NCBI GenBank assembly: GCA_963540925.1
Contig: CAUTRN010000021.1
Span: forward strand, 72,827 to 104,826
DNA: 32,000 nucleotides
Direction of reading: 5' to 3'
Source: an uncultured Sphingomonadaceae bacterium
GTDB taxonomy: Bacteria > Pseudomonadota > Alphaproteobacteria > Sphingomonadales > Sphingomonadaceae
In this document: positions 7,419 to 28,229 of the stretch, in pieces
How the letters are laid out: each line of letters opens with the position of its first letter
Numbering within the stretch: the stretch's first letter is position 1
Notes under the pieces: generated by a model
The model's database searches: none
Told to the model about the DNA's origin: nothing
Seen by the model: only the letters and a program-made list of their open reading frames with translations
Program-made: the position numbers and the translations under genes

Positions 7419-7544
7419 CGAAGTCTCCTTGAGGGAGTTCGGCGCGGTCGAACCGTGATGAAGCGGTCCATTTATAGCCCATTTGAGAGCTGGCGTCACC
7501 ACCGGACACTGGCCTCAAGCGACGGTCCGAAGGCTGTCCGGGAT

Positions 7545-7793: not shown

Positions 7794-7996
7794 GCTCAGA
7801 ACCGCTCCAGAAGGCGCGGCAAATGACTGAATCGATTGAGGGATTCTGAGAGACCTCAACGGTTCCGATCGGTGGAAGCGAGGTCGTTTGCACCGTCCGA
7901 AGAAGCCCTGCCCGTAAGTTCCCCGTGTGTCCTCGGGAACATCCTCGGGACGCCGCCTATCCGGCCCTCATCGGGCCGTATTCGTGGAGCGACGCC

Positions 7997-9253
7997 ATGC
8001 GCAGCGCCAATCGTTTCGACCTTGCCGACTTCGACATTTCCGCCATCGATCCCCCCGCCAACGGGGAGCATCTGTTCCGAGACAGCGTGGCCATGGGGCT
8101 TGCGCTTCGCATACGGGCGTCGGGCGCCCGGACGTGGATCCTCTTCGGTCGCGAGCACCGCAGGACCGCCCGCGAAACTCTCGGCGAAGCCGGATCAATC
8201 CCCTTGGCGACCGCCCGCCGGATGGCGGTGGTGAAGCTCGCGCCCGTGCCAGACTGCCCCGCCACCGCCCCTCTATACAAGCCCAGCGCGACAGTCGCCG
8301 AGGTCTTCGTCGGCTTCCTCGCGCATGGGGCGAAAGGCCGATGGAAATCGAAGTCCGCAGTGAACACCGAGAGTATCGGCCGGCTCTACCTCCTCCCGAC
8401 GCTCGGCCATCGCAAGGTCGCCGAGATCAGCCCGGAAGAAGTCGCGCGCTGGTATCTCGCGGTCTCCGCCGGCCGCAAGGCCGGCCGGAATTACCTGACG
8501 GTCCTGTCCCAGCTCATGGCCTATGCCGAGGACCATGGGCTGAGGCCCAGCGGTTCAAATCCGTGCCGAGGGCTGCGCAAGAAGCAGACCGTCCAGCGCG
8601 GCGCCTATCTCCCGGATGCGACCATCAAGCGGCTCTGGCGGGCGCTCGATCAATTCCAAACGGTAATGCCCACCGTCTGCGACGCGGTCCGCCTCCTGCT
8701 GCTGACGGGGGCCCGGAAGAGCGAAGTCCTCGGCCTGACATGGGACCGGATCATCGGCCCGCGTGCGGTGCTCGATGACTCGAAGACCGGCCCGCAAACG
8801 CTCTGGCTGAACGCCCCGGCCCGTGCCCTGATCGAGGCTCGTCGCCAGCAGGCCAACGGCCCCTTCCTGTTTCCCGCAAAGTCGGGCGAAGGCCCGCTCA
8901 AGGATATCTACGCACCGTGGCTAAGGATCGTGAAGGCGGCGGGCCTGGCCCGGCTTCGCATCCACGACCTGCGCCACCATTATGCGTCGACCGCGGTGTC
9001 GAACGGGATCGACCTGCGCCTCATCGGGCAGTTGCTCGGCCATGCCGATATCGAAAGTACCCTGTGCTACGCGCACCTCGCCACTGGCGCGCTGGTCAAG
9101 TCGGCCAGCCGTGTCTCGGACATCATCGACCGGTCGACCGGCGCCGCCCACATAGCCATGCCGCTTCCCAAGCGCAGGGCATCGCGGGTCCGGCCAAAGG
9201 TGTCGGCCTGGAAGGCGGTCGCGATCCGGAACGGGGAGAGCCAGCATGCCTAA
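7997..9253 (+). CDS. tyrosine-type site-specific integrase (P4-like, DUF4102 arm-binding N-terminus)
   Basis: N-terminal LFRDSVAMGLALRIRASGARTWILF; catalytic LLLLTGARKSEVLGLTW (R), HDLRHHYAS (HxxR), LLGHADIESTLCYAHL (H..Y). Start chosen at ATG 7997; the track ORF begins at 7925. Confidence 0.85.
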   Translation: MRSANRFDLADFDISAIDPPANGEHLFRDSVAMGLALRIRASGARTWILFGREHRRTARETLGEAGSIPLATARRMAVVKLAPVPDCPATAPLYKPSATVAEVFVGFLAHGAKGRWKSKSAVNTESIGRLYLLPTLGHRKVAEISPEEVARWYLAVSAGRKAGRNYLTVLSQLMAYAEDHGLRPSGSNPCRGLRKKQTVQRGAYLPDATIKRLWRALDQFQTVMPTVCDAVRLLLLTGARKSEVLGLTWDRIIGPRAVLDDSKTGPQTLWLNAPARALIEARRQQANGPFLFPAKSGEGPLKDIYAPWLRIVKAAGLARLRIHDLRHHYASTAVSNGIDLRLIGQLLGHADIESTLCYAHLATGALVKSASRVSDIIDRSTGAAHIAMPLPKRRASRVRPKVSAWKAVAIRNGESQHA

Positions 9254-10421
9254 CATGCTCGTCTCGTTGACCCGGACGATATGCGACCGGGCGCGCCCGG
9301 AAGAGCGCGAATATGTCATCCGCGATATCCGCCAGCCGGGGCTGGGACTGCGCGTCCAACCAAGCGGCCTGCGCAGTTGGGTGGTGCGCCATCAGGTGCA
9401 GGGCCGCCATGTGCGCCAGCACATCGGCGGCTATCCCGAGGTCGACGTGAAGCAGGCGCGACAGGCGGCGAACGCGGTCCTCGCCGGCGGCATGCAGCCC
9501 CAGACCATCGCGCCAACCGCGCCGCTGTTCGAGACCTATCAGGTCGAGCATGAGACCGCCTGGGCGAGCCGGTTCAAGCCCGAAGGGCTTCGAACCTATC
9601 GCGCCTATGTCCAGTTGCAGTTGCTCCCCGCCTTCGCCGGAAAGAGGCTCGACGCGATCACCCGGCCCGACGTGGTGTCATGGTTCGAACGCTACAGCGC
9701 TACCAAGCCCGGCGGCGCCAATCGGGCGCTCGACATCTTGCGCCAGATGCTGCGGATCGCGCAGACATGGGGGCATCTCCCCAAGGACTGGATCAACCCC
9801 GCGGTCGGTATTCGGCAGAACCGGCGCAAGGTCGTCGGGACCTTCCTCACCCATGACCAGATGGCGCGCCTCGGCGCGGTGCTGGAACGGCGGATGGCGG
9901 AGGGATGCCAGTCGTCGGCGGTGCTCCACTTCCTCATGCTCACGGGACTTCGCGTGGGCGAGGCAATCGCGCTCGAATGGCGCGATGCGCGGCCCGATCG
10001 ACTATGCCTGCGGGACAGCAAGACCGGCCCGCGCGAGGTTCCGATCGGGCGACCGGTGCAGAAGCTGATCAGCGCCCGCCGTGCCGCCTATCGCTACCGA
10101 TACCACCGCGAGGACAGGATATTCCCGCTGCCCGAAGGCAACCGGTGCAGCTTCGTCCAGACGGTCTGGTACAAGGCCCGGGCAGAGGCAGAGCTTCCCC
10201 CGACACTGCGCATCCACGACCTGCGCCACAGCTTCGCCAGTCACTCGGTGATGTCGGGCGAGACGCTGTTCGCGACGATGCGCCTGATGGGCCATCGCCG
10301 CCCGCAGACGACGGCGCGCTACGCCCATCTGGCGGAGGAAAACCTGCTACAAACCGCCGAAACGATCGGGGCGCTGATCCTGCAGCAGATCGGCCAGCCG
10401 GCCAGACACCTTGTCACTTGA
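9246..10421 (+). CDS. tyrosine-type site-specific integrase, second tandem copy (DUF4102 type)
   Basis: EYVIRDIRQPGLGLRVQPSGLRSWVV; LMLTGLRVGEAIALEW, HDLRHSFASH, LMGHRRPQTTARYAHL. Start ATGCCTAA overlaps the stop of the first integrase by 8 nt. Confidence 0.85.
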   Translation: MPNMLVSLTRTICDRARPEEREYVIRDIRQPGLGLRVQPSGLRSWVVRHQVQGRHVRQHIGGYPEVDVKQARQAANAVLAGGMQPQTIAPTAPLFETYQVEHETAWASRFKPEGLRTYRAYVQLQLLPAFAGKRLDAITRPDVVSWFERYSATKPGGANRALDILRQMLRIAQTWGHLPKDWINPAVGIRQNRRKVVGTFLTHDQMARLGAVLERRMAEGCQSSAVLHFLMLTGLRVGEAIALEWRDARPDRLCLRDSKTGPREVPIGRPVQKLISARRAAYRYRYHREDRIFPLPEGNRCSFVQTVWYKARAEAELPPTLRIHDLRHSFASHSVMSGETLFATMRLMGHRRPQTTARYAHLAEENLLQTAETIGALILQQIGQPARHLVT

Positions 10422-13878: not shown

Positions 13879-14423
13879 GTCGAAGCTCCCTTGATCTTCG
13901 AAACCGCCCTATGCGGCCTCGATAGCGATCGACCGGCGCGAAACGGGCGTCTTGCACCTCCAAGGCCGCAGCGCAGCGGAGGACGGCAGAGCCGGGCATT
14001 TTGCTTCGCGAGGAAGCATGGCACATGCGGGGAAAAAGGCCGGTGGAGCCGTTGCGAGATGAGCCCGTACCGCGCCAGATCCGCGATGGGAGAGGCTGCG
14101 GGCGGTTTACGCGGAGCTGGGGCAGTTAATCAGATCGGTTCGGCATGCACATCAAGAGGTTCAAAGCTTTAGATTGGCAGGTGGGCGCGAAGACCGGACC
14201 GCGCTGAGGGCGCGCAGGTAGCTGCTCATCGAACTGGAATTGGCGGACGGCGAGCGATCCACATTTCGGTATCGCGATGGGGTAACTTCGAAAGCGGAAG
14301 ATTTGCCGTCATCAAACGGTCGCACGATTTCACGTTGATGCCGTGGCGCAATGTGATGGATTTCAATATCGGCAAGACGGTGTCCAGGATCATGCGGGCC
14401 AAAGGGCATTTTCTGGCAGTTCT

Positions 14424-14457
14424 GGCGGGTCGGGCGGGGCGGCGGGTCGGGCGGGGC
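14424..14457. repeat. perfect 17-bp tandem duplication GGCGGGTCGGGCGGGGC x2 (G-run rich)
   Basis: Read directly: 14424-14440 and 14441-14457 are identical. Lies about 190 nt upstream of the ATPase start. Confidence 0.95.
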
Positions 14458-14643
14458 CGGTGCTCAGATAGGCTCGACTGCAGTTCCTCGCCGTCGGCAT
14501 CGCGCGTGACGCGGCGAACAGATCGATGGCCGTCAAGACCATTTCGCAATAGTCATGTGCCGCGCTACACAGCGGGCACGGTACGATCATTTCTTCGTCA
14601 CGCCGGTCCCACAACTAGGATGTGGAGCACAAAGGGGGATGCA

Positions 14644-16203
14644 ATGCGGTTTGTGGTCAAGTTCCGCCAGGGTGAATCACCGACCACGAAACATTATCCC
14701 CATGCGGTCCTCGCACAGGATAATTGGGACGATTACGGCTACAAGACGACCTTCTACGTGAAGCTGCACCTCAGCTCGGACGAAGAGGTCGATCTTGGCA
14801 ACGTCAAAATTATCGAGGCGGCGCGGACCGGCGGCTATACTGAAATGCCCAAGAGTGCCTTTCAGCAACTGCCGGAGGGCTTCGGGTCGCTCGGCGCTGA
14901 ACTTGACTATTATGAAACGCTGCACCGCCTCGGCCGCGACATCTTCGCGCCCTTCCTAGAAGGGTTACGCGACGTCGCCTTCGACGACGAGGCCAAGGCG
15001 GCAGTCGAGGATTCGGAGGCCTATCGTGTCTCGCTGCTGCGGTTCGGTAACGCTGAACGCACCATATCCGATGCCGCCAAATTGCTGCGGGCGCGACGCC
15101 TGCCGATCAAGCGGCGTAGCGCCGGGTTCATCGTCAAGTTCAAGACCAAGGTCGCGCGCCGCGCGGCGTCGCTTCGCGCGGATTTCGATTTCCGCCGGGT
15201 TGGCCGTCTGCCAAACCGGATCATCGCGCTGATCGGCTATAATGGGACGGGCAAGACCCGGTTACTCTCTAACCTGGCGGTCGTCGCGAGCGGCTATGGC
15301 TATGACAGCAAGCAGGAGGCGCTGGAAAATGCCGCCGGGCGCTTCGTCGGCTCGCCGCCGCCATTCAAGACCGTCGTTGTGGTGTCGTACAGCGCCTTCG
15401 ACACCTTCGTGATCCCCGGACAGACGGCGGTCGAGAAACAGCGGCTCCAGGAAAGCGGTGAGCTCTTCGGCTATGTCTATTGCGGCCTGCGCGAACGGGC
15501 CGATGACGATGATGATGGCGAGCCCGCCTATCGCCTGCGAACGCCCGCCGAGATCAAGGAGGAGTTTCTGGCAGCGCTGCGGCGCGTCGTCGCAGCCGAC
15601 CGGCTTCCCGAGCTGATCGAAATCCTCACACCGCTGCTGCGCGATGCCTCGTTCCAGCGGATCGGCCTAACCCAGATTTTCGCCAACCGCGATGAGGATG
15701 ATGTCGCGGACCTGTTTCGCGACCTGAGCAGCGGCCACAAGGTCGTTCTAAAAATCTTGACCGAGCTGACCGCGCATATCGCGCGGTCGGGCCCGACCCT
15801 GGTACTGATTGACGAGCCCGAAACCCACCTTCATCCACCGCTCCTCGCCGCCTTTCTCAAGAGCGTGCGCCTCTGCCTAGAGACCTTTAACGGCTTTGCG
15901 ATAATCGCGACCCATTCTCCCGTCGTCTTGCAGGAGACGCCGGCGCGTTACGTCCGGGTGATGCGGCGGCAAGGCTCGGTAAACACGCTAGACGCCCCTA
16001 CAATCGAAACCTTCGCGGAGAATATCGGTGTCATCACGCAGGAGGTGTTCAACCTCAGCGATGGCGCCACCGACTGGCACGAAACCCTTGGATCGCTCGC
16101 CACCCAGAGCAGCCTCGAAGAGATCGAAGAGATGTTCGAGTCGAGGCTGGGCTTCGCCGCCCGCTCCTATGTGCTGAGCATTCAGGACGAGCGCGAGGAC
16201 TGA
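14644..16203 (+). CDS. ABC/AAA_15-21-type ATPase, Septu PtuA-like
   Basis: Walker A LIGYNGTGKTRLL, signature-like LSSGHKVVL, Walker B TLVLIDEPETHLHP, H-loop IIATHSP. About 200-aa N-terminal domain of unknown type (DNWDDYGYKTTFYVKL). Start at ATG 14644 after AAAGGGGGA; the track ORF from 14335 is probably an over-extension. Confidence 0.8.
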   Translation: MRFVVKFRQGESPTTKHYPHAVLAQDNWDDYGYKTTFYVKLHLSSDEEVDLGNVKIIEAARTGGYTEMPKSAFQQLPEGFGSLGAELDYYETLHRLGRDIFAPFLEGLRDVAFDDEAKAAVEDSEAYRVSLLRFGNAERTISDAAKLLRARRLPIKRRSAGFIVKFKTKVARRAASLRADFDFRRVGRLPNRIIALIGYNGTGKTRLLSNLAVVASGYGYDSKQEALENAAGRFVGSPPPFKTVVVVSYSAFDTFVIPGQTAVEKQRLQESGELFGYVYCGLRERADDDDDGEPAYRLRTPAEIKEEFLAALRRVVAADRLPELIEILTPLLRDASFQRIGLTQIFANRDEDDVADLFRDLSSGHKVVLKILTELTAHIARSGPTLVLIDEPETHLHPPLLAAFLKSVRLCLETFNGFAIIATHSPVVLQETPARYVRVMRRQGSVNTLDAPTIETFAENIGVITQEVFNLSDGATDWHETLGSLATQSSLEEIEEMFESRLGFAARSYVLSIQDERED

Positions 16204-16207
16204 TCCG

Positions 16208-17062
16208 ATGCGCATGATCCCGCTTCTCGCCGTCGACGCGACGGCCACATTCGACGCGATTGCCAAGGCGAAGCACCGGAAAACTCGCACCCACATGCGC
16301 GCTGCTCGGCCCGAGGTCATCGACGCCTATGACAGCTATGCGCAGGCCGCGCCCGAGGTCGCAGCGCTGGCCGCGCTCGACCTCACCAATGATCAGAAGA
16401 CCGCGATGCGACACGCCTTCACGGTTGAAACCGCGCCGATGCAGACCCTGCGCGGCGACCTGCTCGGCCGGCCGATCGTCTTTCGCTGTCCGTTCTGCGG
16501 GATCAGTGAATCCTCCACGCTCGATCATTATCTGCCCAAGGAGGATTATCCCGAGTTCGCGATCCTCCCGTTAAACCTGATCCCCAGCTGCGCTGTCTGC
16601 AACACGCTGAAACGCGATCGCATTCTCGTCGATGGCACCGACGTCCGCATGTTCCTGCACCCGTGTTACGACACGGTCCCGAACGAGGAATTTCTGTCCG
16701 TGCGCGCTCGGATCCAGGACGAGGCGCTCATCCTGTCCTACAGGATACGCCGCCCGGACGGCATGGCACAGCGCATCTTCCGTCACCTCCAGGCGCATTT
16801 CGACGTCCTCAACCTCGCCGACCGCTATCGCCGCATGGCGCTCGACCATCTGGGCGAATATTATCCGACGTTGAGGCGCACCTATGGCGAGGATGAGGAT
16901 GCCGGCCGCGTCGCCAATCTGCTGATCGAGGCGGCCTGCGATGCCGAGGAGGCCTCAGGGCCCAATTTCTGGCGCGCCAAGCTCTACCGAGCGCTAGCCG
17001 CGGACAATGCCTTCTGCGATGGCGGCTTCAGATTGGCGCAGCTGCAATATCGTCCCCTTTAG
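16208..17062 (+). CDS. HNH endonuclease, Septu PtuB-like
   Basis: FRCPFCGISESSTLDHYLPKEDYPEFAILPLNLIPSCAVCNTLKRDR carries the CxxC...DH...N...CxxCN HNH signature. Starts 4 nt after the ATPase stop. Confidence 0.8.
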   Translation: MRMIPLLAVDATATFDAIAKAKHRKTRTHMRAARPEVIDAYDSYAQAAPEVAALAALDLTNDQKTAMRHAFTVETAPMQTLRGDLLGRPIVFRCPFCGISESSTLDHYLPKEDYPEFAILPLNLIPSCAVCNTLKRDRILVDGTDVRMFLHPCYDTVPNEEFLSVRARIQDEALILSYRIRRPDGMAQRIFRHLQAHFDVLNLADRYRRMALDHLGEYYPTLRRTYGEDEDAGRVANLLIEAACDAEEASGPNFWRAKLYRALAADNAFCDGGFRLAQLQYRPL

Positions 17063-17097: not shown

Positions 17098-17301
17098 TCA
17101 GCGCACATTGCGCAGCGGTGCGTCGAGCCGCCTGCGGATCGTACGCCGGGCCCGCTCCAGATTGGCAAGGATCTGGCGGATGCGGCCCTGGGAAAGGCCG
17201 AACTCGCCCGCAAGCGCCTTGACCGGCGTGCCTGCGGCATGGGCCGTTTCGATCCGCAGATTGCGCGCCGCCTTCGACAAGATGTCCATCGATCCTCCCA
17301 T
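17098..17301 (-). CDS. small HTH protein (sigma-70 region 4.2-like)
   Basis: VKALAGEFGLSQGRIRQILANLERARRTIRRRL resembles the region 4.2 HTH. Lies 22 nt downstream of the helicase gene on the same strand; alternative start at 17289. Confidence 0.5.
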   Translation of the reverse strand: MGGSMDILSKAARNLRIETAHAAGTPVKALAGEFGLSQGRIRQILANLERARRTIRRRLDAPLRNVR

Positions 17302-17323
17302 GCCTATGATCCATCCGGCGGGT

Positions 17324-18691
17324 CTAGCCCGCGAGCTGCACGGGCGCCGACGGCGTCAGGCCGAAGACTGCCGGGTACACGCGCTCCGCTCGTGCCAGCG
17401 ACGCCATCAAGGTCAGATGCGCGCGCCAACCACGATACTCCGGGTCATCGTCGATGCCGAGCGAACGGTCGCCGACCGGCGCGAACTGCATCAGCTGATG
17501 ACCGATCCCCTGCCGTCCGAAAATCCAGCATCCGATCCGGTGCCGCGACAGCATCACGCACAGCCGGCCGGCATCAAGATGAAAGGCGGTGGCATCCGCG
17601 CGCCCCGACAGCGGATGATGGACGAACATGAACGGCCGCTCGATCCCCTGAAACCGGTTGGCTGTCTCAACGAACACCTCCGCCAGATCCGGGCCCAGTC
17701 GTTCGCGCACGGCGTTGACCTGGCTGACATGTGCGCAGACCACGCCGATCATGTCGGGCGTGATCCATTCAGAGACGCCGTCATCGTGCATCCATGCGCT
17801 GCGCCCGAGCAGCCGCCTGATCGACGCCACCAGTTCCTGCGCGATCTCCCCATCGGCTTCGCCAGTGATCTGCGCCGGAAGTTCGACCATGACGATCGAC
17901 GACCCCGAAGCGACGGCATCGAGCGCCGCATCAAAGGGCATGATACCGTCAACCTGGAAATGGAGCGAGCGGTTCTGGCTCATCGCTCGAAATGGCATCG
18001 CGGGGTAGAAGGCGGGCTGGACTAGCCCGACTGTGTCCGCATTAAGCCGGCGCGATACGGGCAGATCGAGCTGGAGGACCGTCGGATGGCGCTCGACCAA
18101 GGCGGCGGGACACGCGACCTGAGGCCCTGCCGGATTGCAGCGCCACCGCTCGATCTCACAATTGACGAACGGATCGATCTGGCCCGGGTCGCCGATCAGC
18201 ACATGGCGCGGCGCAAGGTTGGAGATCAGCTGGAAGCGATAGTCGGGGAGCTGGAACGCCTCATCGACGATCTGGACGTCGAAGCACGGATATTCGCTTC
18301 GGATCCAAGACCATTTCGCGGCATTGCCGATTGTGATCGAGGGGTGCTGCGGCAGGCTTGCGACATCGTGAACCACCACTAGGTTCGCGAGGCCGGCGAC
18401 ATTGGCGGGAAGGTTGATCGTCTTCTTGGCGAACAAATAGATCGGCAGGCCGGCTGCGTTCGCGGCCAGACGGCGGGTCAGATCAAAGGCCTGTTCGTTG
18501 GTCTGCGTGACAACCATGCAGCGCTGGCCGAGCATCGTAGCGCTCTGCAGGGCGACGCGCTGGGCGACACCGGTCTTCCCCGCACCCGGCGGCGAGCGCA
18601 ACACCAACGCAGGCTCGCCTTGCCACTGGCTAGCGAGAACCCGCTCGAGCGCGGCGTCGGCGACGGCCTGCGGATCGAAGGGCGCGGTCAT
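17324..18691 (-). CDS. SF1 helicase, Upf1/Dna2-like (AAA_11/AAA_12 type)
   Basis: Walker A RSPPGAGKTG; Walker B QIVDEAFQL; motif III LIGDPGQIDP; motif V TANRFQGIERPFMFV; motif VI LCVMLSRHR. ATGA overlap with the upstream gene. Confidence 0.85.
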   Translation of the reverse strand: MTAPFDPQAVADAALERVLASQWQGEPALVLRSPPGAGKTGVAQRVALQSATMLGQRCMVVTQTNEQAFDLTRRLAANAAGLPIYLFAKKTINLPANVAGLANLVVVHDVASLPQHPSITIGNAAKWSWIRSEYPCFDVQIVDEAFQLPDYRFQLISNLAPRHVLIGDPGQIDPFVNCEIERWRCNPAGPQVACPAALVERHPTVLQLDLPVSRRLNADTVGLVQPAFYPAMPFRAMSQNRSLHFQVDGIMPFDAALDAVASGSSIVMVELPAQITGEADGEIAQELVASIRRLLGRSAWMHDDGVSEWITPDMIGVVCAHVSQVNAVRERLGPDLAEVFVETANRFQGIERPFMFVHHPLSGRADATAFHLDAGRLCVMLSRHRIGCWIFGRQGIGHQLMQFAPVGDRSLGIDDDPEYRGWRAHLTLMASLARAERVYPAVFGLTPSAPVQLAG

Positions 18692-20130
18692 GTCAGGCTT
18701 TCCACGGCGGCGAGCAGGTTGGCGGGCATCGGGCGCACGACAGGTGCCGCAGCCGGCATCGTGTCGCCATGCGTCCAGGGCTCGAACGTGAGCCGCTTCG
18801 CCATCTGCCCCAGCTCATTGCCGATGCCGCGCCAATCGGGGGCAGCCGGGCCGAAGTCGAGCGTCACGCCGCTCGTCATCTTCTTTATCGTATTTTTGCC
18901 CGTACCGATCATGGCGTTGATCCAGGTGAACGGCCCCCGCCGCTCGACCGACTCGATCCGGATCGACATTTTCGGATCGTCCAGCGTCCACAGAACATCG
19001 CCAGCGCGCAGGTGGAGGCTGTCCTGGTGGCTGGTCAGTTCGAGATGATATTCGAACAGCCGTGGCCGAACCCGCTCCTCAGCGATGACCGCGATTTGCG
19101 CGCGCAGTACGCTGCCGTTGACGACGCCCTTTTCGCGCGCCGCCCGATCGTGCCGAAGCATCCCGGCCTCGAAGTTCGTGACCGCATGTTCGCGCGCAAC
19201 GATCTTCATCGCGGCGGCCTTAGGCTTGTCGTGATAAGGCAGAAAATGCCCTTCGTCCCGGCTCGCCATGAAGTTCTCGAATTCGTCTGCTTCCTGCTGC
19301 GCTAGGCCGTCGAGCGAAGGGTTGGCCTGCCACCTCGGCACCGTCAGCAAGGCGATCGCCCGCTGAGTATTGGCGTAAATTGGCCGAAGTATGCCTTCGA
19401 GTAGCTGCTGGATGCGCGATCGATGATAGGCGATCACCGCAGCTGGCTGACTTGCCTTGCGGGCCGCGTGAAAGTCCTCGATCGCGGGTTGCAGGGTGCT
19501 GCGATCGAAGCGCGGATCGGTCTTCACCCCCATGGGCTGCGCCTCGGCGGCGGCGACCGCAGCGAAGATATCGCGCCCCGCCGGCGGCTCGATCCAAGTG
19601 AGCACCGAGCCGAGATGCTCGTCCTCGGCTTCCTGCTGTCCGGTCGCATAATGCGCGCGCAGCGCGGCGGTTGCGCTGATCAGCGCCTGCTGGCCGGCGA
19701 CCGGCGACCGCTCACCGGCATAGGTCCACAGCGTACCGAGGCGCTGGATATCGGGTTCGTCGGTGAACCTAAGGCGATCGGCCAGCGTGTCGAGATGCCC
19801 CAACGCCCCCGCCGAAGCGACCCAGATTTGGGGGAAGGTCGCAGCCGCGCGGCATTCCGCAAAATAGGCCTCGAACTGCGGAAGGAGCCAGCGCAGAAGG
19901 TCATATTGCTCATTGCGGTCGCGAGGGTCGGCGACGGTGTTGATCTGCGGCGCTTCGCCGAACCGGCCAATCGCAGCGGCATGGACCGATGTGTCCTCCC
20001 CGGCCATTGCGAGCAGGGTCAGGATGCGCGCGTGCGGTTGCACTATCACTTGGCGCTGCGAGACGATCGGGACCGCCTGGCCGGTTTGCAACGCGCGCAC
20101 CCGCGCGACGACATGGACGAGGTCACCCAT
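18688..20130 (-). CDS. hypothetical protein (~480 aa), no recognisable domain
   Basis: Long ORF with GC-rich third codon positions. The ATG at 20130 gives an ATGGGTGA 8-nt overlap with the upstream stop; ATG at 20163 is the alternative. Confidence 0.75.
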   Translation of the reverse strand: MGDLVHVVARVRALQTGQAVPIVSQRQVIVQPHARILTLLAMAGEDTSVHAAAIGRFGEAPQINTVADPRDRNEQYDLLRWLLPQFEAYFAECRAAATFPQIWVASAGALGHLDTLADRLRFTDEPDIQRLGTLWTYAGERSPVAGQQALISATAALRAHYATGQQEAEDEHLGSVLTWIEPPAGRDIFAAVAAAEAQPMGVKTDPRFDRSTLQPAIEDFHAARKASQPAAVIAYHRSRIQQLLEGILRPIYANTQRAIALLTVPRWQANPSLDGLAQQEADEFENFMASRDEGHFLPYHDKPKAAAMKIVAREHAVTNFEAGMLRHDRAAREKGVVNGSVLRAQIAVIAEERVRPRLFEYHLELTSHQDSLHLRAGDVLWTLDDPKMSIRIESVERRGPFTWINAMIGTGKNTIKKMTSGVTLDFGPAAPDWRGIGNELGQMAKRLTFEPWTHGDTMPAAAPVVRPMPANLLAAVESLT

Positions 20131-21229
20131 GCGCGATCCGATCCAGCAGGGCCGAGGCGGCACGAAGCTCGCTGGCGAGGCTCGCTTCGGCGGGATTGTC
20201 AGGGGGGCGCCCCTTGCCGTCGAGAAGATCGATCACGCGAGCGATCGAGCCCGCAGCCGCGAGTTGTTCAGCCGCCTGGTCGCCCAGAATGATCGGCAAA
20301 CCCGCGCTGAGCGCTTGGGCACGGCAATGTTCCCAGAGCGCGCAATGCTCCTTGCACCCCGATCGGTAGTTGTTCGGCAGCTGATCGATGACGGCGCGGT
20401 CCGCGAAGCTCGCGTCGGCCGGCAGAAGCCGCTCGACATCGTCAAGGTCAGCGGGCGCTGCTGACAACGCCCGGGTCAGAGACGCCAGTTCAGACTCGGC
20501 TCGATTCCGCGGGAAGAGCCGGGGAATGAAGGACCCCGGCGCGCGCAAGACCATATCGACGCGATCGCCCGCGATCAGCGGATCGCCGTCTCGGCTGGCG
20601 ATATGCTGCCCTAGGGCGAGCGTTCCGACAGCTGCCTGGCGCAGCGCGGCGCGGATATCCGACTTGTCGGTCTTTCCGCCACGATCGGCGAAGGATTTAA
20701 TGACGCCGACCCGGTAAAAGGGGTCGTCATCGCTCGCGACGAGATAGTCGAGTTCAATCGGGTGGGTGACGCCGACCAGCATCAATGGCAGACGAGGGTT
20801 GAGGATCAGATTGGGCGCGAGCGGATCGCCGCGAAGCTTCAGGTCAATGAGCCGCTGCGTTTCAAGCACACGCTGATGCCGCGCAAAGCTGCTGTCGCCG
20901 GGCGCATGGTTCGCAACCGCCGAGATCTTGATTTCTAGCTGGGTCAGCAGATGCTTCTCGCGATAGGCCGTCAGCAGCGACGCCCCGCCATTGTCAAGCA
21001 GCCGGCGTTCATAGGCTTGGCTCAGCGTCATCGCGAAGGGCGACATGACATCGGGCTGCATCCCGAACACATGCTCAATGATCTCGGCTGGAGTCAGCCC
21101 GGCGATGACGATCGCGCGTAAACGCACGCACCCGGTATTGCGCGCCACGCTCTCGATGCCGCGCGCGCCGACCTCGACAGGCTTGATGCCGCCGCGAAGG
21201 CGGGCAAGGCGCGCATTCGCTGGGGTCAC
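20123..21229 (-). CDS. hypothetical protein, putative Cas4/RecB-like PD-(D/E)XK nuclease with 4-Cys cluster (inference)
   Basis: One N-terminal Cys (NTGCVRL) plus a C-terminal CKEHCALWEHC (C-x3-C-x5-C). Candidate core HPIELDYLV ... RVGVIKSF. GTG start in a GTGA overlap with the upstream gene. Confidence 0.7.
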   Translation of the reverse strand: MTPANARLARLRGGIKPVEVGARGIESVARNTGCVRLRAIVIAGLTPAEIIEHVFGMQPDVMSPFAMTLSQAYERRLLDNGGASLLTAYREKHLLTQLEIKISAVANHAPGDSSFARHQRVLETQRLIDLKLRGDPLAPNLILNPRLPLMLVGVTHPIELDYLVASDDDPFYRVGVIKSFADRGGKTDKSDIRAALRQAAVGTLALGQHIASRDGDPLIAGDRVDMVLRAPGSFIPRLFPRNRAESELASLTRALSAAPADLDDVERLLPADASFADRAVIDQLPNNYRSGCKEHCALWEHCRAQALSAGLPIILGDQAAEQLAAAGSIARVIDLLDGKGRPPDNPAEASLASELRAASALLDRIAHG

Positions 21230-22086
21230 CGGATAGCTCTCTCGGCAATCTCGGTATCGATCATGAGCGGCCGGCCCCAGAGCCTGAACGCCGTGCTGCT
21301 GTTGCCGAGCCTCGCCACGGCCTCGCGGCGTTCGGCGAGATCGGCCTCGTCCAGCAGCGCGAGTTCTCCTTGCGCGGCCTCGATCACGCGCTTCGGATCA
21401 ATCGGCTGGCCGGTGTCATTAGCGCCTGGAATGGAGCGGGCGAAGGCAAAGAGCAGGCGCTCGATATTCTTAGCCTCTACGGCACCCACCTCGCGCAGTT
21501 GCGCAAGACGGTTGGCGAGGCTGATCGCAACCCGCAGATTGTCGGTCCGCATACTACGCGATCCGACGATCCGGCGCTCCAAGCTCCAGGTCGAGCTCGT
21601 CAGCAATCGCGGGATAGCCGTCAGCTGGGCAGCACTGATCGCGGGCACGATCCAGGCTGGACGTGCCGCAAGATTGCGCCGAGCCGCATTCTCCTCATCG
21701 CGCTTCAAACTGGCGAAACGCGACGGAGACGGGCGGTCGCCGGTAAGTGCTGCGGTTAAATCGGCAATCAACGCCGGAACGGACGGGACGCCCAGATCGT
21801 CAAGCGCATCGAGCGCGACTTCGCGCAGCGGCTTGTTCGGCTTACGCGAACGCGGCGTTGCAATGTCCCGCGCTTCGAGCTCGCTGAACCGCAGCGCATC
21901 GGACAAGCGCTGATACTCGGCATGGAGCTCGGCGATCCTCGCCTGTGCGCGATCACGTCGCGCTTGGTCCCCGGATGCCAAAGACTTGGTGAGCTCGGCA
22001 TAAGCATCCTGCTGGCGCTTGGCATTGCGTGCGAGCTGGTCGGCAAGGGGAAGGGCACGGGACATACCCGCTGTATAGCGTTCCAC
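21226..22086 (-). CDS. hypothetical protein (286 aa), N-terminal coiled-coil-like region
   Basis: Charged helical N-terminus QQDAYAELTKSLASGDQARRDRAQARIAELHAEYQRLSDAL; no catalytic motif seen. GTG start at 22086, alternative ATG at 22065. Confidence 0.65.
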   Translation of the reverse strand: MERYTAGMSRALPLADQLARNAKRQQDAYAELTKSLASGDQARRDRAQARIAELHAEYQRLSDALRFSELEARDIATPRSRKPNKPLREVALDALDDLGVPSVPALIADLTAALTGDRPSPSRFASLKRDEENAARRNLAARPAWIVPAISAAQLTAIPRLLTSSTWSLERRIVGSRSMRTDNLRVAISLANRLAQLREVGAVEAKNIERLLFAFARSIPGANDTGQPIDPKRVIEAAQGELALLDEADLAERREAVARLGNSSTAFRLWGRPLMIDTEIAERAIR

Positions 22087-22189
22087 GCTTTTCCATGCAA
22101 TACCATGCTTATCCTAGCCAAGATGCAGCTAAGTAGCTGTTTTTGGAGAGATCTCGCCTGTCACATCGTGCATGGCGTGGAGACTGCGG

Positions 22190-23494
22190 TTACTTGGCGA
22201 AGCAGAGTACCGATTCGGTCGCCCCAGACGGGCGGTCATAGGACAGCCGGCCGCGATGGATGTCGGACATCGAGCGGAGGTGGAAATCCTTGCGCTGCTT
22301 AAGGTGCAAGCCGTGCGCAGCGCCAATCTCCGAGATGATCCTCGGCAGATCATTATGCAGTTCCTTATAATAGGAATCCTGCACGACCAAGATCGCGCGC
22401 CCACGCGGCTTGAGCGCACCGGCGAGACGCTCGATCGAGCGGTTCATCTTGTCATAATAGTCGAGATGGGTTCGGTAATAATATCCTCCGGATGCTTTCG
22501 ACGGATGGGCCTTCAGCTTCTCCAGAAAGGCAGCGCAGCTTTTGCCCCACGCCTGATCCACCTCAATCGTCTCGCTGGGCACCTGGGTCGTACCGATCAT
22601 CTGCTTGCCCAGCGCCCGCGCGCCACTGCTCAGCAGCGGCCCGAGCACTGCCAGTTCGATACGGGTCGCGGCGGTATAGTCGATCCGCGTGCAGTAAGGC
22701 GGCGACGTCAGCGCGAGATCTATGCTCTCGTTGTCGAGCGTCATTGTAGCCGTATCGGAAAGCAGGATTTTTGAATCGCCAATGCGCGGCGCATTGACGA
22801 GCAGCCGGTCCGCCACGCGCTTCAGCGCGAGCGCTGCCGACATGCCGCGCACATTGTCGCCGAACGACCGTGCGACAAGGATCTGTGCCGCAGCCACGCG
22901 CGCCTCGTCCTTCTTGGGCTGGCGCAACCATGTCGGGTTCGAGGACTGGAAGCGCACGACGAGTTTACGACAGGCGGCGAAGAGCGCGACATAGAGCGTC
23001 GCGGCGGTGCCCGAGATCTTGTCGAGGTGCACACCGTCAGGGGACTTGGTCATACTGCCGACGAGACTGCGGCGGATATTCTGTTCGATGCCACGGATAA
23101 AACTGGCCGTCGGCGGATCGAACCATCCAAGCAGTGCATCGTCGGGCAACAACCTCGGGGGCGTCGAATGCGCATGCGACAGGATCGTCGCGGCGAGCGG
23201 GCGGAGATGGTCCGCTTCGCTTGGCGGAAGAAGGCGGGCACGCGCTACGATGATCATTACCGGATTGAGGTCAATGCCGACCGCGTTCAGGCCCAGGGTG
23301 TTCGCCGTATAGGTGGTCGTGCCGCTGCCATTCCAAGGATCGAGAATAGTTGCGCCGCGCGGTAGCTTAGCGCTCTGCAGCAATTCGCGCGCGAACAACT
23401 CCGGAAACCCGGCATAATAAGGGAAAAAACCCTCCCAGCCGGTCTGCAAGCGCTTGTTTCGTTTCGGCGAGTTTATGCGGAATCTGGCTGCCAT
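22190..23494 (-). CDS. DNA methyltransferase (N6-adenine or N4-cytosine; motif order I then IV)
   Basis: SAM-binding motif ILDPWNGSGTT near the N-terminus. Catalytic LTSPPYCTRIDY about 200 aa later. C-terminal LKPRGRAILVVQDSYY is typical of N4/N6 MTases. Confidence 0.85.
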   Translation of the reverse strand: MAARFRINSPKRNKRLQTGWEGFFPYYAGFPELFARELLQSAKLPRGATILDPWNGSGTTTYTANTLGLNAVGIDLNPVMIIVARARLLPPSEADHLRPLAATILSHAHSTPPRLLPDDALLGWFDPPTASFIRGIEQNIRRSLVGSMTKSPDGVHLDKISGTAATLYVALFAACRKLVVRFQSSNPTWLRQPKKDEARVAAAQILVARSFGDNVRGMSAALALKRVADRLLVNAPRIGDSKILLSDTATMTLDNESIDLALTSPPYCTRIDYTAATRIELAVLGPLLSSGARALGKQMIGTTQVPSETIEVDQAWGKSCAAFLEKLKAHPSKASGGYYYRTHLDYYDKMNRSIERLAGALKPRGRAILVVQDSYYKELHNDLPRIISEIGAAHGLHLKQRKDFHLRSMSDIHRGRLSYDRPSGATESVLCFAK

Positions 23495-23539: not shown

Positions 23540-24133
23540 TCAGGCGAACCCGCGCTTGCGACGGACGGTAATGGCCAGACGCGTGATTTCGGCCGGCAAC
23601 ATGGCGGATTGCACCAGCGCGATCGGCGGCGGGCTCGACAGGGTCGAGAATGCTCGATCATAGATGGCGACGCAGCCGCCCGTCGTCAGCCGTGAATCAA
23701 AGAGGATGCCGTCGATATCGGGCATCTGGTCGTGGACTGCTTCGGAGAAGGCCTGGCCCTGGCCATGATCGCGCGCGCGACTGGCATCGGTGTGGATCCC
23801 CAACTCATAGGCGGCCGCCCCGGTTAGATCGAGCAATGCCAGCTCCCGACCAGAACTAATCGACGCGACGCAGAGCTGTTCCAGGTGTGGCCGATACAGG
23901 AAGCGACGCTCGCGGCCTTCGAACCGATCGCGGACGACCGCTTCGGCGAAGGCGGTAGAAAAGCTGTCCGCGGTATAGAGCACGCGAAAGATGCGGGACG
24001 GGCTTGAGAAGCGGCTCGACCCAAAACCTGCGTCGGTAGGGGTGGCGCGATGCTGGCTCGGCATGATACGGGGCCAGTCTGCAATCCTTGCGCGGACTAC
24101 CCGTTGGCCCAGATGGGACAGAACGATTTTCAC
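23540..24133 (-). CDS. RES domain toxin (ParT/MbcT-like)
   Basis: R-E-S signature residues in GSSRFSSP, TAFAEAVV and GILFDSRLTTG. GTG start in a GTGA overlap with the antitoxin stop. Confidence 0.85.
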   Translation of the reverse strand: MKIVLSHLGQRVVRARIADWPRIMPSQHRATPTDAGFGSSRFSSPSRIFRVLYTADSFSTAFAEAVVRDRFEGRERRFLYRPHLEQLCVASISSGRELALLDLTGAAAYELGIHTDASRARDHGQGQAFSEAVHDQMPDIDGILFDSRLTTGGCVAIYDRAFSTLSSPPPIALVQSAMLPAEITRLAITVRRKRGFA

Positions 24134-24750
24134 GCGTAGTCAAACGCCCCTTCCGCAGCACCCGTGACCGCCGCCACCTCACCATCGCGCAAGGCGTCGA
24201 TGGGCGGCTTGCCATGGGTCATCCGGTTCGGAGCGACGAGCCACTCCCAAAGCTCCTCGGCCGAGGGGAAGAAAGTCGCGACGACATCGAGGCCCGGCAC
24301 CGGGCGGCGGCGATCAAATTGCCGGACGGGATAGACATAGTTGCGCAGCCCCTTGCGCAGCGCGACAATCCTGTGCGCCTTGCGCCAATTATCCAGCGTG
24401 CCACGCGAAATGCTGAGGCGCTCTACCAGATCGCCCGCACCGAGCAGCTCGCTCTCGACCCAATCGGCGGAATCGTCCGCAACGGTGATCGCGTCGAGGA
24501 GCCTGCTCCCTTCGCCAGCCGACACAACCGGCCCGACGCCTCCACCTTGCAGAACCTTCTCGGGCTGGGCCGGGATGCGCGCTGGCGCCTGCCGCTTGTG
24601 CGTGCGAACGGATTTCGCGGCGGCTGGTATCGGCACCTTCAGCGCCGTGGCAAGGTCAAGGAGCCCCGCCAAGTCCATGCGCTCGACTTTGCTTTCGATC
24701 GCCTTTGCCAAAGCGAGCCTAGCCGGATGCGCTTGCTTCATAGAAGTCAT
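24130..24750 (-). CDS. Xre/ParS/MbcA-like antitoxin (C-terminal DUF2384) with internal MerR-like HTH
   Basis: C-terminus WLVAPNRMTHGKPPIDALRDGEVAAVTGAAEGAFDY is DUF2384-like. HTH region AGDLVERLSISRGTLDNWRKAHRIVALR. SD AAGGAAGGA upstream of the ATG. Confidence 0.8.
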   Translation of the reverse strand: MTSMKQAHPARLALAKAIESKVERMDLAGLLDLATALKVPIPAAAKSVRTHKRQAPARIPAQPEKVLQGGGVGPVVSAGEGSRLLDAITVADDSADWVESELLGAGDLVERLSISRGTLDNWRKAHRIVALRKGLRNYVYPVRQFDRRRPVPGLDVVATFFPSAEELWEWLVAPNRMTHGKPPIDALRDGEVAAVTGAAEGAFDYA

Positions 24751-24767
24751 ATCTTATCCTTCCTTAG

Positions 24768-24799
24768 GCAAAATAGGCAATTTATGCAAAATATGCAAT
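24768..24799. promoter_or_regulatory. candidate operator: 14-bp direct repeat, 18-bp period, upstream of the antitoxin gene
   Basis: GCAAAATAGGCAAT (24768-24781) and GCAAAATATGCAAT (24786-24799), one mismatch. AT-rich divergent intergenic region between the TA operon and the recombinase gene. Confidence 0.45.
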
Positions 24800-25057
24800 A
24801 GCCCGGTGGACAAGGAACAGTTCGTCGCCAATTGCTGCGCTCACAAGGTCGCTTTGCTGTCTTAGGGATCGAGCAAAGTCACGGAAGCGCCAAACCCGAA
24901 GCTCTACCCCCGCCTCCTTGGCCGGACGTTCGACCAGAATATTAAAATGCGGCGGGTTTCCCCGCATTTCACGTTTTCCATCGTCATGTCATTGGCCGCC
25001 CGACGCGGTCCCGGCGCGAGCCGCCGGCCGACACATAACGATGGATTTGTCGACAAG

Positions 25058-27037
25058 ATGCACTCGAACACCCGAACAAAATACCCCAACGCCGTTTCGA
25101 ATTGCCAGAAAGCCACCATATCGACCGACGCAGGGCCAAGGCGTCGCGGTCGTAAGCCACACCCAATCATCGAGCATCCAGCGGCGATCGCCGGCCCATG
25201 GATCGATCCCCCATCCTTCGAAGCCGCTCTGCGGCTTCACATGCATCGCCACCGAGATAGCTGCCATCATCTCGCCAAAGCGATAGCCCGCACGGGCGAG
25301 AGGATCGAGAACGCCACCCTCAACTCCTGGACGTGCGGCCGTCGGGTTCCGCGAAGCGTTAGGAGCATGGAAATCCTGTTACGGATCGAGCGGCGCTACC
25401 AGCTTCCCGAAGGCTATTTCAAAACGAAGCTCCCGCATCAGGGGCGCGCGTCAACGGGCCATCATCTCCCCGGCATCGCCGCATCTGAACGCCGCCGCAT
25501 TGCATGGCATCTTCCTGATGATTTCGACCAGCGCCCTCGCGCGGAACGCGATGCGATCGTCAAGTGGGTGCGGACAGTGGTAATCTCAGGAACTACCGAT
25601 TACCGCCGGTTCCAGGCTGAAGCGCTCAAACACCGTTATGCTGTCCGCTTTCCTGATCTGAAGCAGGCGTTTCCCGCAGACGAAGAACTGATCGTCGAGA
25701 GCGATCCCGACCTGACATCCGGTACGATAGCTGCGCCCCGCCGACTGGCCTCAGAGATGGCAAGCCTGGTCTCCTTCAAATCGACGACGCTTGCCGCCAT
25801 CGGTTACCAGCGGAATGGGGTCTGGAATGAGGAGACATCGGCGCAAAAGGTCGAACATCTTGGCCTGATGTTCGGAGCTCTCGCAGCCCAGCCCCGTGGG
25901 CCTATCGCCGGTTTCGGCGTACCGCTTGCCAAGCTTACTTTCGCAATCCTAGTCTTTCCCGCCGTCTGGGACTGGTATGTTCAGTGGCGCGAGCGTCGAC
26001 GCGGCTTCTACACCTCCTGGGAAGCAGAGATGCTGAGGCTTGGCTTGGCGCTGACGCGTCGCGGGACCGGATGGCTCCGACAGCACCCTGCCCTGGCCGA
26101 GCGTCTCCAACCGATCCCGCCGCTGGTTTCCGCGAGCGACATTTCGGAAGCGCAAGCGGACTGGTCTGCGGCCTGCGATCGATTTTACGACCATGGCATC
26201 AGTCGCGCGCGCGAAATCGACCGAGTTGCGCGGGTCCACCGCGATCCCTTCGAACCGATCTTGCCCATCCTCGAGGCCGACAGCCCAGTCGGGGAGTACA
26301 GACGGATTACCGATGAGATCATCCGGCTCATGCCCGATGCGAGATATTACCCTCGCGACGCCGCCGAAGCGACGCGCTCCCTGCTGATGCTACGCCTCGG
26401 CCTGCATCTTGGCCTTCGACAACGCAATTTGCGTGAGTTGATGCTTTGCTTTCCCGGAGCCCAACCGCGCACCGAACGCCAACTGGAAGCCCAAAGGCGC
26501 GGCGAAATACGGTGGAGTGAACGACATTCAGCGTGGGAGGTTCTGATACCCTCAGCGGCATTCAAAAACGCCAGTTCATCCTTCTTCTCGGGAAAGCCCT
26601 TTCGCCTCCTTCTGCCAGACCTCGGCGATCTCAATCGTTATATCAGCCATTATGTGCAGCATCACAGAAAAAGGCTTATCGGTCGTGCGCGTGACCCTGG
26701 CACCTTCTTTGTGAAGACAATAAAGGCCAACAGCCAGAGCGCTGCCTATGATCAGACCACCTTCTATGAGGCGTGGCGGCTGACGATCCAACGCTATGGG
26801 ATCTTCAATCCCTACACAGGCCGAGGCGCGATCAAGGGCCTGCTGCCCCATGGGCCACACAACGTGCGTGACGTCCTTGCGACGCACATCCTCAAACAGA
26901 CGGGTTCCTATGAGCAGGCGAGCTATGCCATCCAAGACACGCCGGATATGGTCGCCAAGCATTATGGGCGGTTCCTGCCCCAGGATAAGTCGGCGCTCGC
27001 CGCAGAAATCTTGAACAAGGTATGGAAAGCAGCCTGA
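25058..27037 (+). CDS. large atypical tyrosine recombinase (long N-terminal extension)
   Basis: C-terminal catalytic region LGLRQRNLREL (R), LLPHGPHNVRDVLATHIL (HxxR), MVAKHYGRF (Y). About 400 aa of uncharacterised N-terminal sequence with an HTH-like segment. Start uncertain: 24947, 25058 or later. Confidence 0.8.
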   Translation: MHSNTRTKYPNAVSNCQKATISTDAGPRRRGRKPHPIIEHPAAIAGPWIDPPSFEAALRLHMHRHRDSCHHLAKAIARTGERIENATLNSWTCGRRVPRSVRSMEILLRIERRYQLPEGYFKTKLPHQGRASTGHHLPGIAASERRRIAWHLPDDFDQRPRAERDAIVKWVRTVVISGTTDYRRFQAEALKHRYAVRFPDLKQAFPADEELIVESDPDLTSGTIAAPRRLASEMASLVSFKSTTLAAIGYQRNGVWNEETSAQKVEHLGLMFGALAAQPRGPIAGFGVPLAKLTFAILVFPAVWDWYVQWRERRRGFYTSWEAEMLRLGLALTRRGTGWLRQHPALAERLQPIPPLVSASDISEAQADWSAACDRFYDHGISRAREIDRVARVHRDPFEPILPILEADSPVGEYRRITDEIIRLMPDARYYPRDAAEATRSLLMLRLGLHLGLRQRNLRELMLCFPGAQPRTERQLEAQRRGEIRWSERHSAWEVLIPSAAFKNASSSFFSGKPFRLLLPDLGDLNRYISHYVQHHRKRLIGRARDPGTFFVKTIKANSQSAAYDQTTFYEAWRLTIQRYGIFNPYTGRGAIKGLLPHGPHNVRDVLATHILKQTGSYEQASYAIQDTPDMVAKHYGRFLPQDKSALAAEILNKVWKAA

Positions 27038-28153: not shown

Positions 28154-28229
28154 GGGCGGTTAGCTCAGTTGGTAGAGCATCTCGTTTACACCGAGAGGGT
28201 CGGCGGTTCGAGCCCGTCACCGCCCACCA
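28154..28229 (+). tRNA. tRNA-Val (anticodon TAC)
   Basis: GGGCGGTTAGCTCAGTTGGTAGAGCATCTCGTTTACACCGAGAGGGTCGGCGGTTCGAGCCCGTCACCGCCCACCA. Acceptor GGGCGGT/ACCGCCC, D-loop AGCTCAGTTGGTAGAGC, anticodon loop TTTACAC, T-arm GGTTCGAGCC, encoded CCA. Confidence 0.95.

Follow-up and report, generated by a model that had tools for sequence, protein, structure and literature searches.

A putative restriction-modification-like module on a split Dna2/Bad-type helicase-nuclease in an integrative and conjugative element of a sphingomonad

Among described systems, the nearest to the one reported here is Bad, a DNA2-like helicase-nuclease of Geobacillus stearothermophilus that is always encoded beside a methyltransferase in Geobacilli and that its authors proposed to be a novel restriction enzyme, unwinding and degrading DNA (PMC7430649). 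We studied a 32,000-nucleotide stretch of DNA from an uncultured Sphingomonadaceae bacterium (assembly GCA_963540925.1, contig CAUTRN010000021.1, positions 72,827 to 104,826 of the forward strand), which is called the window below. Its minus strand carries a gene for a DNA methyltransferase (MTase), followed by four genes that we designate B, C, D, and E. Judged by their sequences, C, D, and E resemble a Dna2/Bad-type enzyme that has been split among three polypeptides, a likeness that an earlier note on this DNA, made from the nucleotide sequence alone, had overlooked. We conclude, holding the chances to be about even, that these genes constitute an unnamed defense module that resembles restriction-modification (R-M) systems and is built on this split helicase-nuclease. 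The genes and the control region discussed first are the following.

22190..23494, minus strand: MTase, 434 aa (PF01555, 3e-13)
22066..22118, minus strand: promoter/operator of the B-C-D-E operon, proposed from sequence and conservation
21226..22065, minus strand: B, 279 aa from ATG 22065 (286 aa from GTG 22086)
20123..21229, minus strand: C, 368 aa, predicted Cas4/RecB-family PD-(D/E)xK nuclease (fold and four-cysteine pattern)
18688..20130, minus strand: D, 480 aa, signature subunit whose modeled fold is unmatched
17324..18691, minus strand: E, 455 aa, superfamily 1B (SF1B; Upf1/Dna2-like) helicase core (AAA_12, 1.1e-8)
17098..17301, minus strand: F, 67 aa, small open reading frame (ORF) with weak helix-turn-helix (HTH) matches, outside the conserved module

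The earlier note had described six minus-strand ORFs, from the MTase to F, and all six are present where it placed them, with F 22 nt downstream of E. The overlapping stop and start codons at the B/C (GTGA), C/D (ATGGGTGA), and D/E (ATGA) junctions are likewise real, as is the AT-richer gap between the MTase gene and B, which measures 103 nt and has 50.5% GC, vs 64% for the cluster. The longest ORF of D extends to 20163; because its homologs start at the position of ATG 20130, comparison with them sets the start there. For B, ATG 22065 is the most likely start rather than GTG 22086, since most homologs start alike and the GTG falls inside a conserved operator repeat. The gene order and the overlaps recur in dozens of loci from different phyla, and the arrangement is therefore far beyond chance.

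Three lines of comparison lead to Dna2. That E is an Upf1-like helicase of superfamily 1, as had been claimed, is borne out by its AAA_12 match, by a further match to AAA_11, and by a complete set of SF1B motifs (GAGKT, DEAFQ, GDPGQ, QGxER, and SRHR), which are intact in E and invariant in 11 diverse orthologs. The best solved relative found with the E family profile is the helicase domain of Dna2 (2.4e-12), followed by IGHMBP2, Upf1, and Sen1/SETX. E also matches the NCBIfam model "PLuB system helicase" (1.8e-14); the score is far below the model cutoff, and the literature yielded nothing on this lead.

Foldseek comparison of the predicted structure of C (predicted local distance difference test, pLDDT, 87.3) with PDB returned RecE, Exo5, MGME1, the Cas4-family protein ACE1, and Dna2, with further matches to Cas4 SSO0001, AdnAB, lambda exonuclease, and AddB. 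Four cysteines (C34 and C292-x3-C296-x5-C302) and the residues E159, D167, and K178 are invariant in 52 sequences. One N-terminal and three C-terminal cysteines form the "iron-staple" arrangement known from AddB, Dna2, Cas4, and Bad (PMC7430649), and by this pattern C would be a nuclease of the Dna2/Bad type. The label Cas4-like, which the earlier note had given to C, is apt for the fold and the cysteines but not at the level of sequence profiles, where neither Cas4 nor PDDEXK_1 was matched. All 128 homologs of C are annotated as hypothetical. Most of the family has PD...ExK followed by RQ; in the window's clade the motif is LD...VxK followed by RE, with a compensating glutamate at position 198. 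Residues 160, 176, and 198 covary between clades, in what looks from the alignment like a migration of the catalytic acid.

D, encoded between the nuclease and the helicase, has 329 close homologs, none of them named, and a profile search (E <= 1e-3) gathered 700 representatives of 50%-identity clusters, again without a named protein among them. Nearly all full-length members, fragments aside, are ~460 to 510 aa long. The model of D (pLDDT 95.9; predicted template modeling score, pTM, 0.91) consists of an N-terminal alpha/beta domain, a bundle of long helices, and a beta-barrel, and Foldseek found no match for it in PDB or BFVD at E <= 1e-3. Its best partial structural matches are Sen1, SETX, and Dna2, which are Upf1-like helicases with barrel-and-stalk accessory domains. 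In one related locus (L034, 8001-10730), D and E are fused into a single protein of 909 aa (P0332); this locus lies in a P4-like element beside a type I HsdR gene and has neither B nor the MTase. Dna2 is among the best solved-structure matches of each of C, D, and E, and the gene order nuclease-D-helicase is colinear with Dna2.

Compared with Bad, as that enzyme has been described, the module shares the iron-sulfur (Fe-S) iron-staple RecB-family nuclease, the SF1B helicase of 5'-3' polarity, and the neighboring MTase, all as predicted here. It differs in that Bad is one polypeptide, whereas the nuclease and helicase are encoded here by separate genes with D between them and B in front; in the cysteine spacing, which is CX2CX5C in Bad and CX3CX5C here; and in the MTase, which is type III Mod-like beside Bad but here has SPPY and motif I before motif IV. 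Eukaryotic Dna2 follows the order of C-D-E, with an Fe-S RecB-like nuclease, a barrel/stalk accessory region, and an SF1B helicase. However, this replication and repair enzyme consists of one chain, is under the control of RPA, and has no MTase partner, and C and D resemble it only weakly, at the level of fold. A nuclease and helicase in one polypeptide did not occur in the related loci, the D::E fusion being the only fusion seen. With C and E separate and D between them, the module is thus like, but not a member of, the single-chain Dna2/Bad family. AddAB, AdnAB, and RecBCD are also multisubunit helicase-nucleases that degrade foreign linear DNA as a side function, and AddB and AdnA/B contain the same iron-staple nuclease domain. 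Their motors, however, are SF1A (superfamily 1A, UvrD-like), plus RecD in RecBCD, and have the nuclease fused to them; Chi rather than methylation regulates these enzymes, which are housekeeping and chromosomal, whereas the present module is mobile and patchy in distribution. Cas4 has the PD-(D/E)xK fold and four Fe-S cysteines, as C appears to have, but C is ~170 aa longer and has no CRISPR context. Published associations of solo Cas4 with helicases involve UvrD or YprA helicases, not SF1B (PMC5704561).

About 55 related loci were gathered from genomes, metagenomes, and individual contigs or plasmids, and the window proteins were mapped onto them. As the close clade we define those loci in which D is at least 60% identical to that of the window (30 informative loci). 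Its genera include Novosphingobium, Sphingopyxis, Caulobacter, Brevundimonas, Azospirillum, Methylocella, Mesorhizobium, Bradyrhizobium, Devosia, Roseovarius, and Paraburkholderia. All 30 of these loci carry B-C-D-E together with a trio of genes, Xre-RES-MTase, in which the MTase is joined by an Xre-family antitoxin and a RES-domain toxin. Outside the close clade, the complete MTase-B-C-D-E set without RES-Xre is found in nine loci, including L032 and L035, where D is only 23 to 26% identical; B-C-D-E in ten, two of them Streptomyces plasmids; C-D-E only in five; and an MTase remnant in one (L027). The last is decayed (8268-10002): half an MTase runs directly into C, B is deleted, and C-D-E is intact. 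In every locus examined, C, D, and E are adjacent, with stop and start codons that overlap or abut, and C-D-E ranges over Alpha-, Beta-, and Gammaproteobacteria, Acidobacteriota, and Actinomycetota (Streptomyces plasmids).

C-D-E is thus the invariant core of the module, and B and the MTase are accessory. The six-gene unit of the earlier note does not hold in this comparison. F has a homolog in a single related locus, the nearest relative (L006), and for that reason is not part of the system; a role for it as regulator of the system was rejected on the same ground. The F ORF is present, but its description as a sigma-r4-like HTH protein has weak profile support only (e.g., Sigma70_r4, 0.008). 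No gene after E is conserved in other loci, and the genes beyond the block are not conserved across loci either. The functional block reaches upstream to Xre-RES (to 24750) and leaves out F. In one metagenomic close-clade locus (L050, ~3200-5050), an insertion of ~1.9 kb separates the MTase from B.

The MTase carries motif I (LDPWNGSGTTT) N-terminal to motif IV (SPPYCTRIDY). The DPWNGSGTT and SPPY motifs, already pointed out in the earlier note, are invariant in seven orthologs, and motifs I and IV remain so in aligned orthologs down to 35% identity. Profile matches are to N6_N4_Mtase (PF01555, 3e-13), PADLOC MTase_II (2.9e-19), and, over the full length, phrog_18146 (5e-22), and the SPPY motif suggests methylation of N4-cytosine, or possibly of N6-adenine. 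Over 24 loci, the identity of the MTase rises and falls with that of D (Pearson 0.99, Spearman 0.94), with the MTase 35 to 37% identical where D is 23 to 26% identical. The family stands directly upstream of B in three separate clades, and the co-occurrence on which the earlier note had made its proposal depend persists at this distance. A Roseomonas mucosa plasmid (NZ_CP025192.1; L041, 6243-10096) encodes an MTase ortholog with 51% identity, preceded by a RelE/ParE toxin and an HTH regulator and followed by a DUF262 protein and a HEPN-like nuclease. By gene content this repeats the layout found here, in which a toxin-antitoxin (TA) pair is followed by the MTase and then by an effector, although the effector itself differs. 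A link of the module to methylation is favored by this layout and by the deep co-divergence of the MTase and the operon.

B has 100 homologs, all annotated as hypothetical, and comprises an N-terminal helical hairpin and a conserved C-terminal domain; its invariant residues include R88, R129, D130, S165, R172, E241, D249, and R253. Directly upstream of B lies an element that the earlier note had also overlooked, GCTAGG-N4-GCATGG-N4-GCATGG-N4-GCGTGG, with an exact period of 10 nt, overlapping a candidate promoter, TTGCAT-N16-CTATAC. Because CTATAC ends 7 nt before ATG 22065, the B mRNA would be near-leaderless. The element is nearly invariant in 19 aligned loci, irrespective of the orientation of the MTase trio. 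The exact triple repeat, with a chance expectation of 0.03 in the window, precedes B in 18 loci belonging to the window's clade and also in L028 and L029, two loci without Xre-RES. Of 13 loci with B that were examined, all but L024 show an enrichment of degenerate TGGWA repeats in front of B; the 12 include L032, L035, and the Streptomyces plasmids (TCTGGAA, three to four copies). Where B is lacking, no such repeats precede C. The presence of the element goes with that of B rather than with the MTase or Xre, and we infer from this that B binds it and controls the operon; B is probably, by this pattern of conservation, a DNA-binding controller or adaptor. In R-M systems governed by controller proteins (C-proteins), the gene for a small Xre-type HTH protein directly precedes and overlaps that of the nuclease, and its product binds repeats in its own promoter. 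The B gene likewise overlaps C, and its promoter has conserved periodic repeats that track B, but B has 279 aa and no HTH profile is detectable in it. A reading of the GCRTGG repeats as a sigma-54 promoter was rejected because the GG-to-GC spacing does not fit, and a simple promoter and terminator scan of the minus strand gave nothing useful.

In the close clade, the MTase is the last gene of a second unit, which begins with the TA pair.

24130..24750, minus strand: Xre-family antitoxin, first gene of the Xre-RES-MTase operon (PF23125, Xre-MbcA-ParS_M, 3.6e-12)
23540..24133, minus strand: RES-domain toxin (PF08808, RES, 9.2e-22)
24763..24800, minus strand: putative Xre operator, four TTGCMTA repeats, proposed from sequence

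The Xre and RES genes overlap by 4 nt, and the toxin is preceded by its antitoxin, as in other RES-Xre pairs. In 9 of the 30 close-clade loci (L016-L020, L022, L052, L053, and L056) the Xre-RES-MTase trio is inverted as one block, divergent from B, which places the MTase in a TA operon and B-C-D-E in a separate transcription unit; on this gene arrangement, the close-clade MTase is expressed together with the TA pair. The TTGCMTA repeats have a period of ~10 nt, lie immediately upstream of the Xre start, and recur in L016-L022, where they are found between the divergent units and read TAGGCA/TATGCA on the opposite strand. We take them as the probable operator of Xre in this operon. The earlier note had counted two TA modules here. 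RES-Xre is one; for the second there is only a weak FitA-like ribbon-helix-helix candidate at 7071-7502.

The statement that the cluster fits no named system stands as well. B, C, and D had no match in Pfam (E <= 0.1 for C), PADLOC v2, NCBIfam, or PHROGs, and distant members, including every member of the B alignment, were equally negative. Searches of PDB chains (by family profile for B; by single sequence and family profile for C and D) found nothing, and neither D nor the MTase had a match in 50,697 phage records. A search of the literature turned up no paper naming a system of this gene set. With type I and type III/ISP R-M, DISARM, and BREX the module has in common the combination of an MTase, a motor of a helicase family, and a nuclease, and the location on mobile elements or in defense islands. 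Their motors, however, are superfamily 2 (SF2) translocases or sliding switches, not SF1B, and the MTase is dispensable in many relatives of the present module, unlike in those systems. None of the signature proteins HsdS/R, Res, DrmA/B, PglZ, and BrxC is encoded in the cluster, by Pfam, PADLOC, and NCBIfam. A type I system is thereby discounted, none of the six proteins matching HsdS or HsdR. As regards type III, E is SF1B (ResIII, 0.09), the nuclease is separate, and the MTase matches MTase_II, not Mod. Searches for the signatures of BREX (PglZ and BrxC), DISARM (DrmA/B), Druantia (DruE), MADS (Mad1-8), and Hma (HmaA/C) returned only generic MTase matches (mad2, 1.3e-7; HmaB, 1e-6) and helicase-motif matches. 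Hachiman, Gabija, Nhi, and Mokosh pair a helicase with a nuclease, as the MTase-free C-D-E and B-C-D-E forms appear to do, and Nhi and Mokosh use Upf1-like SF1 helicases, like E. Their nucleases belong to other families, however, and they have no D-like subunit; the weak PADLOC matches of E to MkoA/MkoC and GajB are below a useful threshold and reflect helicase motifs only.

We propose that these genes make up a discrete, horizontally mobile module with two transcription units, Xre-RES-MTase and B-C-D-E. C, D, and E would assemble into one ATP-driven helicase-nuclease, a Dna2/Bad-type enzyme divided among three polypeptides, in which E would be the 5'-3' SF1B motor, C the iron-sulfur iron-staple nuclease of RecB/Cas4 fold, and D a scaffold or accessory subunit contacting E. 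The complex would load on DNA, unwind it, and degrade it. We predict that its targets are phage, plasmid, or conjugative DNA, because the module sits on mobile elements among defense genes. Where all five genes are present, host DNA would bear the mark of the cognate MTase and for that reason be spared by the complex, according to the logic of R-M systems. B would bind the GCRTGG repeats at its own promoter and, like R-M controllers, set the timing and amount of B-C-D-E, and in the close clade the MTase would be expressed from, and stabilized by, the RES-Xre TA operon. The earlier note had supposed a nuclease-helicase system that discriminates by methylation. The components it named (MTase, Cas4-fold nuclease, and helicase) are recognizable, but discrimination by methylation cannot be obligate throughout the family. 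The MTase is missing in 15 of 24 loci outside the close clade, which rules out a general dependence of the effector on an MTase mark for self-avoidance. With so many relatives lacking it, the core must be able to avoid or tolerate self-DNA in another way, for example by acting on ends or flaps only.

These MTase-less forms favor the first and main alternative, which we nevertheless consider rather unlikely: that C-D-E, with or without B, is a methylation-independent defense that senses free ends, single-stranded DNA, or replication intermediates, like Hachiman, Gabija, Nhi, or RecBCD. The MTase would then be a later add-on in some lineages, as an extra safeguard or a co-travelling gene. In 15 loci, C-D-E or B-C-D-E occurs by itself and no MTase was seen in the vicinity; the fold relatives of C (Exo5, MGME1, RecE, and Cas4) are end-dependent exonucleases; and Dna2 and Bad act on 5' flaps and junctions of single- and double-stranded DNA, not on sequence motifs (PMC7430649). 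Nevertheless, the MTase is kept in 30 of 30 close-clade loci, an intact MTase never occurs without B in the loci mapped, and in distant clades, whose flanks are unrelated, orthologous MTases again lie immediately before B, a recurrence that is hard to explain other than by a functional link.

We regard as improbable a second alternative, in which the module serves no immune function and processes DNA for the maintenance or transfer of integrative and conjugative elements (ICEs) and plasmids, in the manner of Dna2, AddAB, or AdnAB, through end resection, processing of flaps or replication intermediates, or recombination. The closest solved relatives are indeed repair and replication enzymes, and the module is found on an ICE and on Streptomyces plasmids, once beside SbcCD, and in one case (L036) among housekeeping-like genes. 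Yet its distribution is patchy and its flanks are variable, it repeatedly adjoins Septu, Wadjet, type I R-M, and SIR2/HEPN genes, a cognate MTase is present, and the module has no conserved recombinase, annealing protein, or replication partner. Variable flanks, defense neighbors, and the adjacency of the MTase across clades make this explanation less likely, as they do the last and most doubtful one, that two unrelated neighbors have been juxtaposed, a TA-stabilized orphan MTase guarding the ICE against the restriction systems of its recipients and an independent B-C-D-E operon: ICEs often carry orphan MTases, this one also carries ArdC, the MTase belongs to an Xre-RES operon in a trio that inverts independently of B-C-D-E, and B-C-D-E has its own conserved promoter/operator, but MTase-B-C-D-E adjacency persists without RES-Xre, in non-ICE contexts and at 35 to 55% identity, the MTase and D co-diverge (r = 0.99), and members of the MTase family on Roseomonas plasmids likewise stand ahead of a nuclease effector.

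Several points count against the R-M-like module that we prefer. The likeness of D to the accessory domains of Dna2 and Sen1 is weak (E 0.01 to 0.2; template modeling (TM) score below 0.2), and C, too, has structural matches of modest score (E from 7e-4; TM 0.25 to 0.33). PADLOC holds no homolog, and Upf1-like helicases often work on RNA. To the absence of the MTase from 15 of the 24 loci outside the close clade is added that no second MTase, of another family, was found by Pfam beside the MTase-less loci L005, L024, and L025. Finally, the C protein of the window, like those of L028 and L029, combines V176 with Q198 and so has an acid at neither of the alternative motif III positions. It keeps E159, D161, D167, and K178; to judge from these residues, the window copy of C may have reduced nuclease activity.

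If the R-M-like reading is confirmed, current annotation tools will have missed an unnamed defense family, of which the D family comprises ~700 sequence clusters at 50% identity in at least three phyla. Only tentatively do we go further and suggest that C-D-E is the core of an unrecognized, widespread class of prokaryotic immunity, a three-subunit Dna2-like machine organized around the new-fold D, and that the five-gene form is a new type of ATP-dependent R-M system, shredding unmodified DNA rather than cutting at sites. Such a system would realize the "novel class of restriction enzyme" conjectured by the authors of Bad and so far undemonstrated, and the module offers a test of whether MTase-paired bacterial Dna2-like helicase-nucleases are restriction enzymes that degrade processively. 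The new-fold subunit, the three nested architectures, and the conserved operator are the standout features. D has a confidently predicted fold without a structural relative; the series C-D-E, B-C-D-E, and MTase-B-C-D-E is a natural experiment on the addition of epigenetic self-marking to a nuclease motor; and the operator of B provides a handle on regulation. Where ICEs of rhizobia, sphingomonads, and Burkholderiales carry modules of this kind, phage therapy, plasmid delivery, and genetic manipulation may be limited in the bacteria concerned.

The surroundings of the module in the window are those of an ICE, with a TrwC relaxase, a TrwB-type coupling protein, two tandem tyrosine integrases, ArdC, Ros/MucR, and DUF736. 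Near one end of the element, a 696-aa ORF at 24947-27037 (plus strand) has no Pfam or PADLOC match and a tyrosine-recombinase-like C terminus; it adjoins tRNA-Val(TAC) (28154-28229, plus strand) and is probably, from these features, the ICE integrase. No att-like direct repeats of tRNA-Val were found inside the window, and the genes beyond the tRNA are chromosomal (a TlyA-like FtsJ methyltransferase, BMFP, and TspO). The two tandem integrases, of 442 and 391 aa, are encoded mid-ICE (7925-10421) by genes whose ends overlap, and a 398-aa ORF without a family match comes next.

The defense-island setting proposed in the earlier note is supported, as the neighbors of the module are often defense genes. 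In the window, the Septu-like pair that it had noted is a convergent PDC-M01 pair of AAA_21 ATPase and HNH proteins at 14335-17062 (PDC-M01A, 5.5e-138; PtuA, 1e-96; PDC-M01B, 7e-57). Such a pair adjoins the module in at least eight loci (the window, L001, L028, L029, L042, L044, L073, and L074), in three different positions or orientations; most PtuA copies are only 24 to 34% identical, with 89% in the close relative L042. This co-localization may go beyond the crowding of islands. Elsewhere the module adjoins Wadjet, type I HsdR, SIR2/HD, HEPN-DUF499, integrases, or P4-like elements, and of the two Streptomyces plasmid loci, one has Wadjet and the other SbcCD as its neighbor. In the window, a perfect 17-nt tandem duplication at 14424-14457 (GGCGGGTCGGGCGGGGC x2) precedes the likely PtuA start, within the extension of the longest ORF.

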